64,000 nt of DNA from Acidobacteriota bacterium (GCA_027315185.1 DAHUYO010000006.1:395-64394); one strand, 5' to 3'. Counted from the stretch's first letter, positions 44,624 through 52,740 are shown. Notes: generated by a model from the sequence alone, not told the origin. A program made the numbers and translations.

Positions 44624-47593
44624 TTAGCGGTCCGGCTGCTGACCGGTGCGTGCGCGCAATGCGCGCGGCTTCGGGGGCCCGGCGGCGATGACGAAGTGGT
44701 CGCGGCGATTGGACTGCCAGCAGGACGGGGTATTGGCCGCGCAGAACTGCCGGGTCTTGCCGTGGCCGACGGCGCGGATGCGGCTGGCGGCGACGCCCAG
44801 GCGGATGAGGAAAAGCCGGGCGGCATTGGCGCGGCGCTTGCCCACGATCTGGTTGCCGCGAGCGCTACCGCGAGTGTCGCAGTAGCCGGCGACCAGGACC
44901 GGCACCGCAGGATGCGCCAGCAACCAGATGGCGTCGCGGCGCAGCGTACGGCGGGCGACGGCGTTCAAACTGGAGCGATTGAAGGCAAAGTAGATGTCGG
45001 CCACGTGGCGGCGGAACTTCGCGGCGAGCGATACCGGCCGCGCGCTGGTCCGCGACGTTGGCTTCCCCGCCGTGTGCGTGGCCGCCGGGTGTTTGCGCGC
45101 CGGAGTTGCCGGCGCGGGCGGAGGCGGAACGCCGCCGATGGTTTCCGCGGGTTCCACGGTGGTCTGCACAGCCTCGTGGTTCACGGGAACGGTGAGGCGC
45201 AGGGTCAAATCATGAACGGCGCCGCCGCTGGTGACCACGACCGGGGGTAGGGGCGCCGCCAGCCGCGCGCCCGCGGGCGCGGAATCTAGATCCACGACGG
45301 CGCGGTATTCGCCGGGCAGGACGTCCTGGAAGGAAAACCGCCCGTTCGCGTCGGTGAAGGCATAGAGGCCGGCGCCGGCCGGCTTTCCGGCGCGGCGCAG
45401 GCGCAGCTCGAGTCCCGCCAGCGGTTTGCCGTTGGCGCGCACGGCGCCGCTGACCGAGCCGACGACCTGCAAGGGAATGTTGACCCGCGGCGCCTCGGCT
45501 CCCACCTGAATGAGCCGCGGCCGGGCGTCCGGGGCGCTATATGCCGCAGGGAGATGGTTCATCTCCAGCCCGAGCAGATATTGCCCCGCGCGCACGGCGG
45601 GAAACTCGAACCGGCCCTTGGCGTTGGTGACTGTGGTCCGGCCGCTCAAGCTGACCTCGACGCCGGGCACGCCGCTATCGCCCGCGGTCCAGCGGCCGGT
45701 GCCGGCGCGGTCATTGAAGACGATGCCGCTGACGGTGGTGTAGGTCGGGACCAGACGGTCGGCGTCGCCTTCCGGCAAGCCGGCGAGCATCGGCACGCCG
45801 TGGCCCCAATGGATGGTCTTGGTGAGACGGATAAACAGCGTTTGCTGCGAGAGCGCGGGCAGCAGCGGCACCGGCCCGGCGCCCAGACCGACCAGGACCC
45901 GCGCGGGATTGAGCTGGCTGACCGACGAGTTGTGAATCCACTCGCCGCTGAGCGCGAACTGCCAAGGCAGATGCACGGTGGCGAGCAGCATGACGGTGCG
46001 GTAGGTCTCCAGCGAGAGCGCGGTTTGATCCCGCAGGTCCTTGCCCAACTGCGCCGAGCCGGAGAGCGTGAACCATTGGCCGAACTGCAAATTGCCGCCG
46101 ATCTGGCCATTCAACGTGGTGGCGCCGCCGGCGGTCTGCTGCAAGCCGACGATGGCGGAGATGCTGTCGCCGCCGAGCATGCGGTCTTGTTCGAGCTCTT
46201 CGGTATGCACCGTGGAGTTGCCGCTAGGCTGGGTCGAAGTCGAGACCCAATCTTGATAGCGCAAATAGGTGCGGTTGTCGCCATAGGAGCGCCCCGCCTG
46301 GAGTTGCGCCGTGGTCAGGCCCAGGCTGGGGCCTTGCGCGCCGCTCACGGGGGAGATTTGGCCCCGCGTGGCGCTGGCCAGCAGACTGTAGCCGTCGCCG
46401 GGATTGATGCTGACCGCGCCGCTGGTAGTGAAGGCGTCGGAGTTGGCGAAGGGCGAGGTGCCGAGGCCGCCGGCGTGATAATCCGCCAGCGAGGTGGAAA
46501 GGCTCCAGAGCGTGCTGGGATGGAGGTCAATGCTGGCGTAGGCGCCGCTGCGATCGCCGCTGATGACGTTGGCCAAGGGCAGATAATCCGCGCCCTCGCG
46601 CAGGGCGTAGGCCTGAATGTCGAATTTCGGGCGACTGACGATGGGACCAAAATAATAGGAGAGATCGTTCTGGGACTTGGCGCCGGGCGCGGCGGTCTGC
46701 CGTGCGCGGGAAAGAGAGACTTCGCCCAGCCAGTCGGCGTGTTTGCCCAAACGGTAATCGCCGTCCAGATAGAAGTTGTCGGCGCTGGCGGGCGGCTGGC
46801 CGAGCACCGGGGCCAGGAGGCTGGGAGCGGCGAGGCTGCGGGTGCGGAAATACCGCGCCTCCAGCGTCAGCGGGCCGCGGCCGGTCCATAGCAATTGCGC
46901 GCCGCTCAATTCGCTGGGCGAGGAGGTGAAGAACGGCAGGTAGGGGCCCTCCTGGATGAGTTCGCGGCCGGCGAAGGCGGTGAAGCGCAGGCCGGCGAAG
47001 CGATACTCCGCGGCGCCGCCGGAAAGATAGACGTCCGGGGAATAGAGGCTGCCGAAGTGCAGCGGCATGCGATCGGTGGCGAAGTTCAGCGTGCCGGCGC
47101 GCAGGAACCAGCGGCCGCCGGCGAAGGGGAGATTGCGCCAGGCCGCCAGGTTATTGCCGTTTTGCCAGGTGGATCCGTCGGTGGCGGAATCGAAGGAGAG
47201 GGTGAGCAGGCCGTCGGAGCCGAAGCTCTGCTGAAAATTCGCCAGCCAGCCGACTTGGGTTGGGCCGACGCCGGGCGTGCCGGCCACGGCGTTGCCGCTT
47301 TGGCTGAGGACTTCGGTGCCGACCTCGACTTCTCCCGCGTTGGGCTGCTGCGCCCGCGCGGCGCCGGCCAATAACAGCAGCACGGCTGTCGCGGCGAGCC
47401 AGTACCGCGAAACCACCGCCAGCCGCGCGGGCCAGCCGGGGAATGACCGGACGAGCCGTCGTGCGGGGGCAAGCCGCCGCGGCGCAGGGCCGAGCGGCGG
47501 GAGCGACCGGTGCGCGAGTTGGCTATTGCGTGGCTCCATGAGGGGGGGCGGCGGGAGATGCGGCGGAAGCGGCGGCGGCATTGCCGGTTGCAA
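44624..47593 (-). CDS. Large outer-membrane protein: N-terminal beta-barrel-like region + two CarboxypepD_reg-like domains + C-terminal OmpA-like peptidoglycan-binding domain (alternative start 47539)
   Basis: Signal peptide '...YWLAATAVLLLLAGAARAQQ'. Barrel-like alternating segments over ~550 aa. 'VSGIVFNDRAG...TNAKGRFEFPAVRAGQYLL' and 'VSGAVRANGKPLAG...TDANGRFSFQDVLPGEYRAVV'. OmpA_C 'IYFAFNRSSLNAVARRTL...VLVAGYCDTRGSARGNQIVGKRRANAARLFLIRLGV'. Confidence 0.75.
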   Translation of the reverse strand: MQPAMPPPLPPHLPPPPLMEPRNSQLAHRSLPPLGPAPRRLAPARRLVRSFPGWPARLAVVSRYWLAATAVLLLLAGAARAQQPNAGEVEVGTEVLSQSGNAVAGTPGVGPTQVGWLANFQQSFGSDGLLTLSFDSATDGSTWQNGNNLAAWRNLPFAGGRWFLRAGTLNFATDRMPLHFGSLYSPDVYLSGGAAEYRFAGLRFTAFAGRELIQEGPYLPFFTSSPSELSGAQLLWTGRGPLTLEARYFRTRSLAAPSLLAPVLGQPPASADNFYLDGDYRLGKHADWLGEVSLSRARQTAAPGAKSQNDLSYYFGPIVSRPKFDIQAYALREGADYLPLANVISGDRSGAYASIDLHPSTLWSLSTSLADYHAGGLGTSPFANSDAFTTSGAVSINPGDGYSLLASATRGQISPVSGAQGPSLGLTTAQLQAGRSYGDNRTYLRYQDWVSTSTQPSGNSTVHTEELEQDRMLGGDSISAIVGLQQTAGGATTLNGQIGGNLQFGQWFTLSGSAQLGKDLRDQTALSLETYRTVMLLATVHLPWQFALSGEWIHNSSVSQLNPARVLVGLGAGPVPLLPALSQQTLFIRLTKTIHWGHGVPMLAGLPEGDADRLVPTYTTVSGIVFNDRAGTGRWTAGDSGVPGVEVSLSGRTTVTNAKGRFEFPAVRAGQYLLGLEMNHLPAAYSAPDARPRLIQVGAEAPRVNIPLQVVGSVSGAVRANGKPLAGLELRLRRAGKPAGAGLYAFTDANGRFSFQDVLPGEYRAVVDLDSAPAGARLAAPLPPVVVTSGGAVHDLTLRLTVPVNHEAVQTTVEPAETIGGVPPPPAPATPARKHPAATHTAGKPTSRTSARPVSLAAKFRRHVADIYFAFNRSSLNAVARRTLRRDAIWLLAHPAVPVLVAGYCDTRGSARGNQIVGKRRANAARLFLIRLGVAASRIRAVGHGKTRQFCAANTPSCWQSNRRDHFVIAAGPPKPRALRARTGQQPDR

Positions 47594-48473
47594 CGGGGCC
47601 GATCACCACGTTTTTCTCGATTTGCTGAATCGCCGGCAGACCCATTTCGACGCGGGCGCGGAGCTGATAGGCGCCGGGGCCGGGCGGCGATTGCAGCGCG
47701 AAGCGCAGCAGACGCGTCGTCGCGGGCAGCACGACTTGGCTGCCAATGGGAAACGAGGCGATCGGTTGGCCGCCGACGCCGATGAGTTCCGTGGTGCCGC
47801 TGGCGCGGAAAAACGTCGTGCCGGTGTTGGCGATCAGCAGGCGCAGCTGCCAATGATGGCCGGAGCCGGCGGGCGGCGCCAAGGAAATGTCGGCCAACCG
47901 CCCCGCCACCGTGGGATGACCGACAGTGATGTACAGAATGGAGGCCATGCGCACGCGGGTGAAGATCTGGCTTTGGGCGCCCGGGCGCCGCAATGGGGCG
48001 CTGGTGAACAAGATTGAGGTGTTGCAGCCCTGCGCCGACGTTCCGGCGGGAACCTGAATGGTGTAGCGAATGGTCTCGGTTTGCCCCGGCGCGACCACGA
48101 ACTCGGCGGGGTTGATCTGCAGCCAGGCGGCGCAGCCGGCGCTAGCCGCCGGATCGCCGCGCATGGGGAAAATCGGGGTGCCGCGCGGCGACAGGCTCCA
48201 GTCGCTGGTCCGCGCCGTCATCGGCACGGGCACCGTGCCCAAGTTGGAAACATGCGCGGCGTCGGTGAGGGAGCCGCCGGAGGGCAAGTGGTAGGCCATG
48301 CGCAGCGGGTCCACGCCCAATTGCACCGCCTGTGCCGCCGCCGTCGCGGTGAAGGCGCCGAGGCTCGCGCCGATGAGCGCCGCCGCCAGCATCGCGCGGC
48401 GGCCGGGACGGCGGGCGCGGCTACGGCGTGGCCAGGGTGAAAGTGACGGTTTGCGAATAAGTTCCAGGCGCAT
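47523..48473 (-). CDS. Secreted Ig-fold protein, candidate periplasmic pilus chaperone (start 48473 or 48392)
   Basis: Signal 'RRSRARRPGRRAMLAAALIGASLGAFTATAAAQA'. PapD-like layout: 'VQLGVDPLRMAYHLPSGGSLTDAAHVSNLGTVPVPM' then 'LQINPAEFVVAPGQTETIRYTIQVP', with a second beta domain. Sits between the small subunit gene and the OM protein gene. Confidence 0.4.
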   Translation of the reverse strand: MRLELIRKPSLSPWPRRSRARRPGRRAMLAAALIGASLGAFTATAAAQAVQLGVDPLRMAYHLPSGGSLTDAAHVSNLGTVPVPMTARTSDWSLSPRGTPIFPMRGDPAASAGCAAWLQINPAEFVVAPGQTETIRYTIQVPAGTSAQGCNTSILFTSAPLRRPGAQSQIFTRVRMASILYITVGHPTVAGRLADISLAPPAGSGHHWQLRLLIANTGTTFFRASGTTELIGVGGQPIASFPIGSQVVLPATTRLLRFALQSPPGPGAYQLRARVEMGLPAIQQIEKNVVIGPVATGNAAAASAASPAAPPHGATQ

Positions 48474-49038
48474 AGTTCCAGGAATCGTGAAACACGAGGT
48501 TGCACGTGACGTTGGCGGAGAATAAAAAGCCCGTGCCCTCGGTGCCGCTGGCCGTGGTGGCGGCGGTGGCGGAGAGGGCGGTCGAGCCATTGGGAGTGGT
48601 GATGGTTCCGTTGTTGCCAGCGACGGTGCCCGTGCTGGTCCAGGTGACGGCGCTGACGGGAATGGCGGTCGGTCCGCCGGTGAAATTGGGAGCGTTGGCC
48701 GCCAGGCTGAGGGTCCAGTTGGTGTTGGCGGCGGGACGGAAGATCATCAGACGGACCGCGACCGCTGCCGAGCCGGGCACCAGCGGCTGGCTCGCGGGAT
48801 CGGTGGCGTTGAAGCTGACCGCATTCGGGGTGACGAAGATACGGCCTCGGCCGCCCCTGCCGCCACCGCGCAACATGCGCGCCGCCCGCGCCGCGGTGGC
48901 TGCTGCGACGCCGTGCGATGCGGCCGTCGCGCCGCCGGGGCGGACCCCCGGACCAGCCCGGCCGCCGCGCTGCGCCAGCGCCGGAACAGCCAGCGCCAGG
49001 GCGCAGAGAACGGCGAGATGGAGGCGGGGGATGGACAT
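48421..49038 (-). CDS. Secreted pilin-like subunit P3 (Gly/Arg-rich linker + beta domain ending ...PGTYSQTVTFTLATP)
   Basis: Signal 'MSIPRLHLAVLCALALAVPALAQ'. The C-terminal motif is shared with P1 and P2. Confidence 0.5.
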   Translation of the reverse strand: MSIPRLHLAVLCALALAVPALAQRGGRAGPGVRPGGATAASHGVAAATAARAARMLRGGGRGGRGRIFVTPNAVSFNATDPASQPLVPGSAAVAVRLMIFRPAANTNWTLSLAANAPNFTGGPTAIPVSAVTWTSTGTVAGNNGTITTPNGSTALSATAATTASGTEGTGFLFSANVTCNLVFHDSWNYAPGTYSQTVTFTLATP

Positions 49039-49170
49039 GACAAAACGCTGGGCTCCGGCGGGGCGCAACCTGCCCGCCGGAGCTGGCGCAGCCGCGCTAC
49101 AGCGGGCCGCGGCTGAACTTGGGTGCAGGTTCGGGATCTTGGTTGATGCGGGTCGCCTCTCCTGGTTGAA

Positions 49171-49186
49171 AGCAATTTTCTTGCCA
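49171..49186 (-). promoter_or_regulatory. Sigma54 (-24/-12) promoter TGGCAAGAAAATTGCT in front of the P3-chaperone-OM protein genes
   Basis: The minus-strand read matches TGGCAC-N5-TTGCW at 15 of 16 defined/spaced positions, with correct GG...GC spacing. It lies about 130 nt upstream of the ATG at 49038. Confidence 0.6.
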
Positions 49187-49194
49187 AAACGAGC

Positions 49195-49220
49195 GCCGCG
49201 CCGCCCGTGGGCGGCGCGGC
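49195..49220 (-). terminator. Intrinsic terminator after P1: GCCGCGCCGCC-loop-GGCGGCGCGGC followed by GCTCGTTTT
   Basis: GC-rich stem of 11-12 bp, 18 nt downstream of the P1 stop. The T-run merges into the -24 element of the next promoter. Confidence 0.5.
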
Positions 49221-49237
49221 CGGATGGCGGACGCTGG

Positions 49238-49777
49238 TTAGCTGACCGCCAAGGTGTAGGTGAGCGTGGTGGTGTAGGTGTCCGCCGCGAAGTTGCCGCT
49301 GGACACGGTGTAGGTGATGTTGAACTGCTGGTTCTGCGCGTGCGTGGAAGCCGCGTTGGTGAACAACGTGGCGCCCGCCGAGGCCAGAGCCGCGCTGCCG
49401 ACCAGGGTTCCGCTGCTAACGCTGCCGGCGGTGCTCAGAATCATGTCCGCATCCGGGATCACGTTGGCGGCGTTGCTACCCACCAAGGCGTCGGCACCAT
49501 TGCTGGAGGTGACGGTGATGCTGACCCCCGAGGTGCTGGTGCTGCCGGCGCGGTAGGAGAAGTTGACCTGCGTGGCGCCCGCGGCAGAAGCCCAAGGGCC
49601 GAACGTCGGACCGGTGAGGTTGATGGTGCTGGCGCTGTTGACCACGCTCAGCGTGCCGGCTACGTTCAGGTTCAACGCCAGGTTGGTGGTGCCCGTGGTT
49701 TGGGCCGAGAGCGGCGCGGCGGCCAAGCCTGCCATCACCACCAGGGCCAGAGTCGGAAGAAGCGATTTCAGTTTCAT
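49238..49777 (-). CDS. Secreted pilin-like subunit P1 (major-subunit candidate)
   Basis: Signal 'MKLKSLLPTLALVVMAGLAAAPLSAQT'. Ser/Thr/Ala/Gly-rich beta protein ending 'AADTYTTTLTYTLAVS'. The ATG at 49831 lies upstream of the predicted sigma54 transcription start, so 49777 is preferred. Confidence 0.55.
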   Translation of the reverse strand: MKLKSLLPTLALVVMAGLAAAPLSAQTTGTTNLALNLNVAGTLSVVNSASTINLTGPTFGPWASAAGATQVNFSYRAGSTSTSGVSITVTSSNGADALVGSNAANVIPDADMILSTAGSVSSGTLVGSAALASAGATLFTNAASTHAQNQQFNITYTVSSGNFAADTYTTTLTYTLAVS

Positions 49778-49834
49778 ATCCAGTGTCCGTTTCCGCTGGT
49801 CCATCATCTCGGCCCAGCCTTTGCTGGTCATAGG

Positions 49835-49850
49835 GGCAACCCTGGGGCCA
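49835..49850 (-). promoter_or_regulatory. Sigma54 promoter candidate TGGCCCCAGGGTTGCC in front of P1
   Basis: GG and GC dinucleotides are at exactly the consensus spacing and TTGC is intact. It lies ~60 nt upstream of the ATG at 49777. Confidence 0.55.
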
Positions 49851-50611
49851 AAGCCGCCGCCATTCTTGGCCCGGCTGCAACCTTAGGCGTTTCTAAGGCT
49901 TGTAGGGGAGGGACAGGAAAAACCCTGTACTTGCCACGCCGCCGCAGAGCGCCAAAAAACGTCGCTGCGTGGACGGCTCATGGCCTGTACTGCCTGGGTC
50001 AGCCGCCGGGGCGGCGGCGGTGCGGGCATCGTTGGCGATTTGCCCACGCAGATCGGGAGTGGCGGGCCCGGGCGGGAAATGCACAGGGTTTTGCCCGCCC
50101 GCACCGGCAGGGCGGGTAACACGACGTGCCCAGGCCGCGGGGACAGGGCCGGGGGCCCGGCCGCGGCATGCGGCGCCAGCGCACGGCTGACATCCGGCGG
50201 GGATCCCGCATCGCGCTGGCGGTGACCGGCGAGAACGCCCATCTCACCGTCACCGCGCCGAGCGCACCCGTAGGGTACCCGTCCCCGGCTGCCCAGCAAA
50301 GCTGCCGTCCCGGCCGGCCCCTCCCACTTTCTTCGCGCTGGGCGGGCGGCAGCAGAAACAAGCTCTCGTCTGGCGCGAGGGAGGCGGGCAGGGAGGCGAG
50401 CGTCCCGCTGGCCGTCAGGACGCGCAGGTAGCCACGGTGGCGCGGGATTTGTCATAGTGGGGCTAGCGCCGCCAGAGGAGCGCCGCGAAATCCGCGCCGT
50501 AATCGCCGCAGGCGCGGTTCGACACTGTTCTCTCGCGGCTTTTCCAGCGCACCGTTCGCATTCCGTCCCCACCGCCCCTGGCCGCCACCATCCCGTACCG
50601 CCGATCCCGCC

Positions 50612-52009
50612 ATGGCCGCATCTGCCCCTTCGACCGCAGCCTTATCCGCGCCGGCGGCGGTGCGTCTGCTGGCGGTGGATGACGAGCCGGAAATCTTGGC
50701 ATTGATCGCCGCCACGCTGGAGCCGATGACCGCCTGCGGCGATTTGGAAATCACCTCCGCCGCCGACGGCGCGGCCGCCTGGGAGGCGTTCGTCCGCCTG
50801 CGGCCGGGCATCGTTTTATTGGATCTGCGCCTGCCCGACGCCAACGGCATGGAGCTGCTGGCGCGCATGCTGGCCGCAGATCCCGGCGTCCATGTCCTGT
50901 TGCTGACCGGCTATTACTCCACCGCTTCCGCGGTGGAGGCCATCCAGCAGGGCGCCAGTGATTATCTGGAAAAGCCCTTTTCCGTGGAGCGCCTGCGCGC
51001 CGCCGTCGGCGTGCTGGTGGAGGAAGCGGGCCGGCGCCGGCAGAGCGGGGAGTTGCAGCGCGAGCTGGCGGCGCACGCCGAGGTGGACGGCATGATCGCC
51101 TCCGGCCCGGCGATGCAGGAGGTGCTGGCCGCCATCCGCCGCTACGGGCCGCATTTCAGCGCGGTGTTGGTGGAGGGGCCGACCGGCGCGGGCAAGGAGC
51201 TGGTGGCGCGGGCGCTGCACCGTCATGCCGGCCGCCGCGGGCCGATGGTGGTCGCCAACTGCTCCGCCATCGTCGAGAGCCTGTTCGAAGCAGAGATGTT
51301 CGGCCACGTCAAGGGCGCCTTCACCGGCGCCAGCAGCGACCGGGTGGGGCTGTTTGAAGCGGCCCACCAAGGCACGTTGTTTTTGGATGAGATCGGCGAC
51401 CTGCCGCTGCCCATGCAGGCCAAACTGCTGCGCGCCATTCAGGAACGCCAGGTACTGCGCGTCGGTTCGGTGACGCCGCGCGCGGTGGACGTGCGCATCA
51501 TCGCCGCCACGCATCACGAATTGTCGGCGCTGACGCGTGCCGGCCGGTTCCGCGAGGATTTGTACTACCGCCTGGCCGCGCTGCGCATCACCGTGCCGCC
51601 GCTGGCCGAGCGGCGCGAGGATTTGCCGCTGCTGACGCGGCATTTTTTGGCCCGCTACTCCGCCGAGTACGGCAAGCCGCTGCGCGGTCTGACCCGCCGC
51701 GCGCAGCTGGCCGTGGCGCGCTATGCCTGGCCGGGCAATATTCGCGAGTTGGAGAACGCGCTGGCCGCCGCCGCGCTGCACGCCGCCGCCGATTTCGTGG
51801 ACGTGGACGATCTGCCGGAGGCGGTGCGTGCGCCCGCGCCGCCCGGCGCCGATGCCGCCACGCCGCTGCTGACGCTGGCCGAGATGGAGCGCCGCTATGC
51901 GCGGCAAGCCGTGGCGGCTATGAACGGGAATAAGGTGCAGGCCGCCGCCGCTTTGGGCATTAGCCGCGCCACGCTGTACCGGCTGCTGCGATCTCCGTCT
52001 GCAACCTAG
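50612..52009 (+). CDS. Sigma54-dependent response regulator (NtrC family: REC-AAA+-Fis HTH)
   Basis: REC '[11 protein letters not shown]...[16 protein letters not shown]'. Walker A 'GPTGAGKE'. Intact 'GAFTGA' sigma54-contact loop. '[11 protein letters not shown]'. C-terminal '[16 protein letters not shown]'. Confidence 0.9.
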
Positions 52010-52146
52010 CAATCGTAGGACGGCCGTCCCGCCTGCCAATTTCTCCGCTGCGACCGCGCCACTGGGGTAGCCGTCACGGCTGCCGGGACCCGTCCGGCTG
52101 CCGATGCGCGTCCGGGATGCTGAGATCCCAACGCCGGCGGCCGGCG

Positions 52147-52695
52147 TTAGCTGACGGCCAGGGTGTAGGTGAGCGTGACGCTTTGACTCGGGGCCTGAGC
52201 CGACGCTTGGCTGGCCGGCGCGGAATAGCGGATTAGGAAGCTTTGCCCCAGGCCGTGGGCTTCCGGGCCGCCGCGCCAGAGGACCACGGCGCCGGTGGCC
52301 GGGGATACATATTGCTGGCTGGCGGTGAAGGCGCCGAGCTGCGGCGCGGGACCGGAGAGCGATAGAAGAATGCCGGCTTGGCTGGCCGCGGTAGGCAACG
52401 CCGCAACCGTTAAGGCGGCGCCGCCGAACTGGCTGGCGCGATAGCTGAGCGTGACCATGGACGCGCCGCCGGGCGTAGCCGAAATTGCCTGGCCCGACGC
52501 GGCCGTGGCGCCGTTCAAATTGGCGACCTGCAACACCGCCGCCGGACGCAGCGTCATCGCCAACGGGGTGGAACGATTTTGGGCGCGGGCGGCGGGGGTT
52601 ATCGCCGCCAACGCCAGCAACGCGGCCGGAGCCGCAAACCTCGAGTTGAACCGCGAGGAAGTGAATAACGAACGGAAGCGGAAACGGACGAACAT
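52147..52695 (-). CDS. Secreted pilin-like subunit P2
   Basis: The ATG at 52695 is preceded by GGAGGAG. Signal '...FAAPAALLALAAITPAARAQ'. The C-terminus 'SQSVTLTYTLAVS' is identical in its last 8 residues to P1. Confidence 0.5.
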   Translation of the reverse strand: MFVRFRFRSLFTSSRFNSRFAAPAALLALAAITPAARAQNRSTPLAMTLRPAAVLQVANLNGATAASGQAISATPGGASMVTLSYRASQFGGAALTVAALPTAASQAGILLSLSGPAPQLGAFTASQQYVSPATGAVVLWRGGPEAHGLGQSFLIRYSAPASQASAQAPSQSVTLTYTLAVS

Positions 52696-52723
52696 TGGTG
52701 CTCCTCCGTAGTGCAGACGGAGC

Positions 52724-52740
52724 GCCAAAACGCCGTGCCA
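52724..52740 (-). promoter_or_regulatory. Weak sigma54 promoter candidate TGGCACGGCGTTTTGGC upstream of P2 (alternative: AGGCTTAGAAATCGCT at 52794-52809)
   Basis: Perfect -24 TGGCAC, but the -12 GC is displaced by 2 nt. The alternative has correct spacing but a degenerate -24. Confidence 0.3.

Follow-up and report, generated by a model that had tools for sequence, protein, structure and literature searches.

A candidate sigma-54-activated locus for a surface fibre of chaperone-usher type in an Acidobacteriota genome

Three small secreted proteins encoded near one another by a soil Acidobacteriota bacterium share a C-terminus that resembles the last beta-strand of pilins. Are they the subunits of a surface fibre and, if so, which neighbouring genes would serve its assembly? 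The stretch of DNA analysed (the window; 64,000 nucleotides, GCA_027315185.1 DAHUYO010000006.1:395-64394, positions counted from its first letter) carries the genes for these proteins, here called P1, P2 and P3, on the same strand as those for a PapD-like chaperone and an outer-membrane barrel protein. It is likely, at a probability of roughly 0.7, that the locus encodes a sigma-54-activated surface fibre of chaperone-usher type.

Chaperone-usher pili are the best-understood bacterial adhesive fibres and are catalogued through Pfam models of the usher, the chaperone and the pilin. The pilin, chaperone and barrel of the window all miss these models, yet the module recurs in abundant soil Acidobacteriota, in Thermus and in Deinococcus. 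Every part of the locus is too divergent for standard annotation. In public records its proteins are labelled 'hypothetical protein' or 'peptidoglycan-associated lipoprotein', and the Thermus chaperone alone has been named ('chaperone PapD' at NCBI). The genes, with lengths in amino acids (aa), are as follows.

52147..52695, minus strand: P2, pilin-like paralogue of P1; 182-aa precursor, 144-aa mature protein, end ...SVTLTYTLAVS
49238..49777, minus strand: P1, probable major pilin; 179-aa precursor, 154-aa mature protein, N-terminal strand TNLALNLNV, C-terminal strand DTYTTTLTYTLAVS
48421..49038, minus strand: P3, distant pilin paralogue; 205-aa precursor, 183-aa mature protein, end GTYSQTVTFTLATP
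47523..48473, minus strand: periplasmic two-domain PapD-like chaperone, 316 aa; start at 48473 or 48395 uncertain
44624..47593, minus strand: outer-membrane barrel protein, about 915-990 aa; start at 47593, 47539 or 47368 uncertain

Three secreted proteins with conserved terminal strands

The three open reading frames (ORFs) lie where the original prediction had placed them and end as it described (full ORFs on the minus strand: P3 48421-49068, P1 49238-49831, P2 52147-52794). Their probable true starts are at 49038 (P3), 49777 (P1) and 52695 (P2), the last being an ATG with a GGAGGA ribosome-binding site upstream. Each start leads into a Sec signal peptide that ends A-x-A, with Q following the cleavage site, which bears out the cleavable signal peptides proposed for all three. 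The mature proteins are rich in Ser, Thr, Ala, Gly and Asn, as had been claimed (65% in P1, 53% in P2 and 60% in P3). They are not all free of Cys, since mature P3 contains one (...NVTCNLVF...). The proposed C-terminal pattern (G/D)TY...T-L-A is present in P1 and P3; P2 shares T-L-T-Y-T-L-A-V-S but has P-S-Q where (G/D)-T-Y was expected. Paralogy of all three holds for P1 and P2 by BLASTP, if weakly (28% identity over 156 aa, E 1e-4), and for P3 only remotely, at the level of profiles (P3 family against P1 family, hhalign probability 97.9%, E 3.3e-13, 129 columns); the BLASTP match of P3 to P1 is limited to the last 18 residues.

Such a shared C-terminus could be a coincidence of composition in Ser/Thr-rich, low-complexity ORFs, some of which need not be genes. 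The genome has a G+C content of 68% and many long spurious ORFs, and Ser, Thr, Ala, Gly and Asn make up 53-65% of the three proteins. However, a regular-expression scan for T-[LV]-T-[YF]-T-L-A-x-x at the extreme C-terminus covered the complete genome (3.77 Mb in 263 contigs) and all its stop-to-stop ORFs of 70 aa or more; among these 30,590 it found three sequences, namely P1, P2 and P3, all at this locus. In addition, length and termini are conserved across a family of hundreds of proteins, P1 gives a confident structural model, and gene order and promoters are conserved. The shared motif is not due to chance: genome scan, model and family search together effectively refute coincidence, to which next to no probability can be given.

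The family of P1 is large. A 31-sequence profile of P1/P2-like proteins, run against 1.84 billion representative proteins, matched 567 cluster representatives at E ≤ 1e-3, of which 308 reached E ≤ 1e-10 and 94 reached E ≤ 1e-30. Word-index homologue searches found close relatives only, for P1 as for the barrel protein. Family members are mostly 160-200 aa long and the profile match reaches their final residue. In the orthologues and 149 family representatives the last 16 residues follow the consensus K-T-G-[TS]-Y-[ST]-A-T-[VL]-T-[FYW]-T-I-S-A-[TS]. Absence of the motif from orthologues was the main finding that the original prediction had named as fatal to it; the motif is kept in orthologues and the prediction therefore survives on this point. 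P2 also has orthologues, at loci L045, L048 and L049.

A second conserved element lies directly after the signal-peptide cleavage site. It is a strictly alternating strand, T-[LV]-[ST]-[VLI]-[TN]-[VIL], in which hydrophobic residues account for 96-98% at the three inward positions (113 sequences), and by analogy it looks like the donor strand of chaperone-usher pilins. In mature P3 a Gly-, Arg- and Ala-rich N-terminus stands in its place.

The AlphaFold2 model of P1, built from the 31-sequence alignment, is all-beta and confident (predicted local distance difference test score, pLDDT, 91.7; predicted template-modelling score, pTM, 0.86). Its first strand begins at mature residue 15 and residues 1-14 lie outside the immunoglobulin-like (Ig-like) sheet; the conserved alternating segment is therefore left out of the sheet. 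The top-ranked Foldseek matches in the PDB are mostly chaperone-usher pilins (E 3.6e-3 to 2e-2, template-modelling (TM) scores 0.35-0.48), including the CfaE-CfaA complex (6k73_D), FimG (5iqm), CS17 (8ehs), type 1 pilus subunits such as FimA and FimF, and CsuA/B both in its CsuC complex and in the Csu pilus (6fqa_D, 7zl4). These matches to a predicted structure are a resemblance of fold and no proof of homology.

Several other identities for the three proteins were rejected. Membership of the SCPU family (PF05229) finds no match in P1-P3 or in their relatives (31 aligned, 13 P3-like and 150 representatives), and hhalign against genuine SCPU pilins gives probabilities of 3.5% for the P1 family and 0.1% for the P3 family. 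Reading of the sequences disposed of an outer-membrane beta-signal (the C-terminus is not aromatic), a type V pilus lipoprotein precursor (there is no lipobox Cys) and a PEP-CTERM or T9SS sorting signal (none is present).

A PapD-like chaperone and an outer-membrane barrel

The original prediction pointed to a neighbouring gene as a chaperone candidate. A 12-sequence alignment of the family of the 316-aa protein was compared by hhalign with three chaperones, two of them checked as PF00345 (PapD_N), and matched them over both domains (probability 99.3%, E 1.8e-20, 220 columns). In the other Acidobacteriota that encode them, the comparison chaperones have genuine SCPU pilins and a PF00577 usher as neighbours, and they match CsuC in the PDB. 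On this profile comparison, which is decisive at the level of sequence, the 316-aa protein is remotely homologous to PapD-like chaperones, as had been supposed. It has a signal peptide and neither a C-terminal transmembrane helix nor a hydrophobic C-terminal stretch. A search of PDB sequences with the chaperone profile found nothing.

If the chaperone is read from 48473, its N-terminal region (...RSRARRPGRRAMLAAAL...) resembles a twin-arginine motif and its gene overlaps the end of P3 by about 50 nucleotides. Orthologues have no such motif; export is therefore probably by Sec, and the start may be at 48395.

The chaperone family also brings a second class of fibre into consideration. Enterococcus WxL proteins polymerise by donor-strand exchange with a membrane-anchored DUF916/DUF3324 chaperone, and these pili have been reported as confined to Bacillota, with chaperones disjoint from PapD_N chaperones (preprint, October 2026; 10.64898/2026.10.17.759780). 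Judged by Pfam scores alone, PF06030 (WxLIP_PGBD/DUF916) matches nine of 39 members of the window chaperone's family, one of them above the cut-off, and PF00345 matches seven. The weak matches to both models bear on the claim that the two kinds of chaperone are disjoint (10.64898/2026.10.17.759780).

From such matches the locus might be read as a two-membrane WxL pilus of the Elr type, with WxL pilins and a soluble DUF916/DUF3324 chaperone outside the chaperone-usher lineage. The C-terminal strand of ElrD (...AYKTTITWTLANTPA) does resemble that of P1 (...DTYTTTLTYTLAVS), and mature P1 has a sub-threshold match to the WxL domain PF13731 (13.6 bits against a cut-off of 25, E 0.069) in register with the C-terminus. 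However, matches at E ≤ 0.1 occur in 2 of the 150 representatives, which is noise level, and the hhalign probability against ElrD is 1% for the P1 family and 0.3% for the P3 family; kinship with WxL pilins is therefore unsupported. The window chaperone matches neither PF06030 nor PF11797, its significant profile match is to PapD_N proteins, and it lacks the C-terminal membrane helix found in 96.7% of WxL chaperones (10.64898/2026.10.17.759780). The locus has an outer-membrane component, and no LPxTG/sortase-anchored subunit was seen among its ORFs. Genuine DUF916 chaperones were found in none of 121 genomes of the GTDB phylum of a 'Bacillota' metagenome-assembled genome (MAG) with a related locus. 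All that remains of a link to WxL systems, at the level of sequence, is the weak matching of the chaperone family to PF00345 and PF06030, and a WxL pilus is a very improbable explanation of the locus.

Two further observations concern PF06030. A 485-aa chaperone-family member (L025:826-2280, minus strand, genome G185) has an unusual architecture, with PF06030 above the cut-off, weak PapD_N and AMIN. Among the control genomes, PF06030 is above the cut-off in Lactococcus lactis and in Thermotoga maritima, which has an outer envelope (toga); the latter match is of interest beside the statement that WxL systems occur in Bacillota only (10.64898/2026.10.17.759780).

The barrel protein follows the chaperone and has a signal peptide ending ARA, followed by QQPNAGE. 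It is predicted to consist of a barrel of about 26 strands, two beta-sandwich domains of CarboxypepD_reg/SdrD_B type and an OmpA-like peptidoglycan-binding domain. Its first 560 or so residues have no match in Pfam, NCBIfam or PDB sequences, and its profile matches PDB sequences only through the C-terminal sandwich domains. The model has about 26 long antiparallel strands joined by short loops between residues 5 and 515, and then the two sandwich domains. Its top 11 Foldseek matches are to FimD and PapC (E 3.5e-18 to 2e-11), but with TM-scores of 0.38 or less. The sandwich domains are homologous to those of a usher-like protein of locus L074 (hhalign probability 94.8%, E 5e-8). The barrel protein is thus usher-like in position, layout and Foldseek rank and not demonstrably an usher; by analogy, it is probably an export pore, a functional counterpart of the usher.

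The L074 protein itself (L074:1756-4359, minus strand) is encoded next to a chaperone in L044 and has 868 aa, CarboxypepD_reg-type C-terminal domains, 25% identity to the PF00577 usher of L073 and no PF00577 match. Judging from its sequence, it may be an intermediate between classical ushers and the barrel family. A possible second copy of the barrel (C110:28536-29432, a 299-aa ORF) matches the OmpA-like domain only (E 2e-44); it is a separate OmpA/Pal-type protein and not a second copy of the system.

Several results weigh against a fibre of chaperone-usher type. A classical usher has PF00577, a 24-strand barrel, a plug, an N-terminal domain and two C-terminal domains. In contrast, PF00577 has no match in the barrel protein or anywhere in the genome, and the model, of moderate confidence (pLDDT 74.9 and pTM 0.58 for 729 residues from 23 sequences), shows about 26 strands rather than 24, no plug-sized insert and no N-terminal periplasmic domain. 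Its best TM-score (0.42/0.46) is with the 26-strand MtrB (6r2q_B), which is not an usher, and hhalign against a genuine Acidobacteriota usher gives a probability of 1.4%. The pilins fare no better with known families. Pfam and NCBIfam return nothing usable for P1, P2 or P3; no Pfam pilin family includes them, the 31 aligned relatives, the 13 P3-like proteins or the 150 representatives; and the SCPU, Fimbrial and WxL models give either no match or one at noise level. In structure, P1 resembles pilins only weakly (best E 3.6e-3, TM below 0.5). The window chaperone alone stays below the PF00345 threshold, with only faint Ig-like Pfam matches. Archaic and alternative chaperones have a conserved Arg in strand F of domain 1 (Arg89 of CsuC), which anchors the subunit carboxylate (PMC4654587). 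At the aligned position, whose equivalence comes from chained sequence alignments, the window chaperone has Asn; Arg occurs in 4 of the 12 aligned sequences and His in 3.

Some of these results would suit the main alternative explanation, in which P1-P3 are Ig-like surface or secreted proteins that do not polymerise (monomeric adhesins or matrix proteins), the chaperone escorts them, the barrel exports or displays them and the N-terminal strand is an ordinary first strand. It draws on the weak similarity of P1 to pilins, on the lack of a pilin Pfam match and on a barrel that has neither usher plug nor N-terminal domain and is nearest by TM-score to MtrB. MtrB sheathes a protein and has no polymerising role. 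However, the locus includes a PapD-like chaperone, and to our knowledge such chaperones have been found in donor-strand systems only. AlphaFold2 places the conserved amphipathic N-terminal strand outside the sheet, and several tandem paralogous subunits per locus are typical of fibres. Moreover, chaperones of chaperone-usher systems anchor the conserved extreme C-terminal strand of the subunit (PMC4654587), the element that P1-P3 conserve. Proteins that do not polymerise are, on balance, an unlikely explanation. The pilin interpretation of the original prediction is supported by the fold matches of P1, CsuA/B among them, by the PapD-like chaperone, by the barrel's FimD/PapC ranking and by the motif in orthologues, but the proteins belong neither to SCPU nor to any Pfam pilin family.

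Regulation, gene order and distribution

The regulatory elements between and upstream of the genes are listed below, the promoters being predicted against the -24/-12 consensus TGGCAC-N5-TTGC.

49836..49850, minus strand: predicted sigma-54 promoter of P1, TGGCCC-N5-TTGC, site TGGCCCCAGGGTTGC, 1 mismatch
49172..49186, minus strand: predicted sigma-54 promoter of the P3-chaperone-barrel operon, TGGCAA-N5-TTGC, site TGGCAAGAAAATTGC, 1 mismatch
52713..52740, minus strand: two overlapping, imperfect sigma-54-like -24/-12 elements upstream of P2, ambiguous, TGGCACGGCGTTTTG and TGGCGCTCCGTCTGC, 2 mismatches each
49195..49220, minus strand: intrinsic terminator after P1, 11 G-C pairs, 4-nucleotide loop, T-run
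50612..52009, plus strand: NtrC-type sigma-54-dependent response regulator, PF00158 1.8e-61, PF00072 1.6e-23, PF02954

Both strands of the 64-kb window together contain only eight sites with at most one mismatch; one lies before P1 and one before P3, both intergenic and in the correct orientation. The elements upstream of P2 have a short spacing to the ATG. The P1 site is kept upstream of P1 orthologues in two genera (orthologous loci L045, L048 and L049), and a Terracidiphilus locus (L050) has a perfect TGGCACTAAAGTTGC before its first pilin gene.

The NtrC-type regulator has receiver, AAA+ and Fis-type helix-turn-helix domains. Its gene also lies between P2 and P1 in L010/L045, L048 and L049, and from its sequence and position it is the probable activator of the pilin promoters. 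With predicted -24/-12 promoters and an enhancer-binding protein, the P1 and P3 loci have the sequence features of a sigma-54-dependent operon. The strong terminator noted after P1 was confirmed (11 G-C pairs and a T-run at 49220-49195), and the P3 promoter abuts it. P1 thus has a terminator and a predicted sigma-54 promoter to itself, in keeping with the proposal that it is the major subunit.

Along the minus strand the order is P2, the NtrC-type activator (on the opposite strand), P1 with its terminator, P3, the chaperone and the barrel protein. The gene order pilin(s)-chaperone-barrel is conserved in two families of the taxonomic order and at 24 named loci, Bryobacterales, Thermus and Deinococcus among them, that a search with a 5-sequence chaperone alignment found; a search of the phylum added further Acidobacteriota loci. 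Nearly every locus that is long enough encodes between one and four small secreted proteins with a T-x-T-[FYW]-T-[IL]-type strand at their end, followed by the chaperone and by a 670-1020-aa protein built like the window barrel protein. All three other genomes of the genus encode a chaperone homologue, as does one further genus of the family; in a second family its occurrence is patchy, and across the phylum 42 of 401 sampled genomes have it at E ≤ 1e-5. Further homologues come from Bryobacterales, Thermus, Deinococcus, an Armatimonadia MAG and the MAG labelled Bacillota; the complete pilin-chaperone-barrel module recurs in Terriglobales, Bryobacterales, Thermus and Deinococcus. In the library searched, the literature links Acidobacteriota with donor strands or chaperone-usher pili in passing mentions only.

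In Terracidiphilus-type loci the chaperone gene is preceded by a tandem array of three P1-like genes and by a single P3-like gene. After the barrel gene these loci encode a secreted protein whose length ranges from about 1100 aa to over 1660 aa (L013:12907-17892, L050:9449-12808, L053:9530-12832, L058:9392-12853 and L066:9392-12823); where complete, it ends ...VRTVQVTLTVQ, a beta-strand-like C-terminus. Judging from sequence, it may be a big tip adhesin of the same system. At the window locus ClpB, and no large secreted gene, follows the barrel gene.

Homologous loci are present in the cultured Deinococcota Thermus tenuipuniceus (L060) and T. caliditerrae (L061) and in Deinococcus spp. (L064, L065 and L067). 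At these loci a homologue of the chaperone accompanies pilin-like genes whose products end ...GTYTIDVTFTLAGL, ...LLFTLSRL and similar, and the barrel protein, 950-1024 aa long, does not match PF00577. These cultured bacteria are possible experimental hosts for the system.

A proposed assembly route and known donor-strand systems

From these computed features we infer polymerisation of the subunits, separate roles for P1, P2 and P3, and export through the barrel. P1, P2 and P3 would be exported by Sec and their signal peptides cleaved. Each mature subunit would then be an Ig-like domain lacking its last strand, with the C-terminal strand G-x-Y-x-x-T-x-T-[FYW]-T-[IL] edging an open groove, which a strand of the PapD-like chaperone would fill in the periplasm. 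At the barrel, the N-terminal alternating strand of the next P1 would displace the chaperone strand (donor-strand exchange) and the growing fibre would be threaded outward. P1 would be the major subunit and P2 an alternative or minor one. P3 is a candidate for the first subunit (tip or initiator), because it has no alternating N-terminal strand and heads the assembly operon. The OmpA-like domain of the barrel protein would tether the machine to peptidoglycan.

If the locus does encode a fibre of chaperone-usher type, the known range of fibres built by donor-strand exchange would widen, and Acidobacteriota, a phylum whose surface biology is almost unknown, would have an organelle for surface attachment or biofilm formation. 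The barrel would also be a natural test of which parts of an usher, such as the plug and the N-terminal domain, are dispensable. A broader proposal is more speculative and at present rather doubtful: loci of this type in Acidobacteriota, Deinococcota and other two-membrane bacteria might represent an unclassified, deep-branching lineage of donor-strand-exchange pili that connects chaperone-usher with Gram-positive WxL pili. Its chaperones would lie between PapD_N and DUF916 in sequence space, and a barrel of about 26 strands without a plug would serve as its pore, either recruited independently of classical ushers or diverged until only the C-terminal domains can be recognised.

MtrB/PioB sheaths resemble the window barrel in strand count, MtrB gives the best TM-score, and in these systems too another protein passes through a barrel. 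However, the window locus has no cytochrome partners, MtrB has neither C-terminal sandwich domains nor an OmpA domain, and the Foldseek E-value is weaker than that of the ushers.

In the Elr pilin of Enterococcus faecalis the N-terminal strand is a donor strand and the C-terminal one reads T-x-T-W-T-L, features comparable to those of P1, and the end of ElrD (...AYKTTITWTLANTPA) resembles that of P1. Some members of the window chaperone's family also give sub-threshold PF06030 (DUF916) matches. In contrast, the Elr system has a membrane-anchored chaperone, no outer-membrane component and a sortase-anchored fibre, and is reported as confined to Bacillota.

Type 1 and P pili of Escherichia coli (Fim and Pap) resemble the window locus in several respects: FimD and PapC rank top for the barrel; FimG, FimA and FimF match P1; and the window barrel, like their ushers, is followed by two C-terminal beta-sandwich domains. 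However, neither the pilins nor the barrel of the window has detectable sequence homology to Fim/Pap, TM-scores for the barrel are 0.38 or less, and a lectin-type tip adhesin, an usher plug and an N-terminal domain were not found at the window locus.

The archaic (sigma) Csu system of Acinetobacter baumannii, with its pilin CsuA/B, chaperone CsuC and usher CsuD, offers a further comparison, and archaic chaperone-usher systems are already known from Deinococcus-Thermus (PMC4654587). The window pilins differ in not being SCPU domains (no PF05229, hhalign 3.5%), and the window chaperone in being sub-threshold for PF00345 and having Asn at the position aligned with CsuC Arg89. The barrel differs in lacking PF00577, in its modelled strands (about 26, with no plug or N-terminal domain) and in its added OmpA-like domain, and the window locus in being under predicted sigma-54 control. 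What the two have in common is the order of pilins, chaperone and outer-membrane pore; a periplasmic chaperone of two Ig-like domains, homologous by way of the Acidobacteriota PapD_N proteins that match CsuC; small subunits that begin with an alternating strand and have, at the extreme C-terminus, a strand containing G-x-Y; and a subunit fold for which CsuA/B is among the best structural matches of P1.

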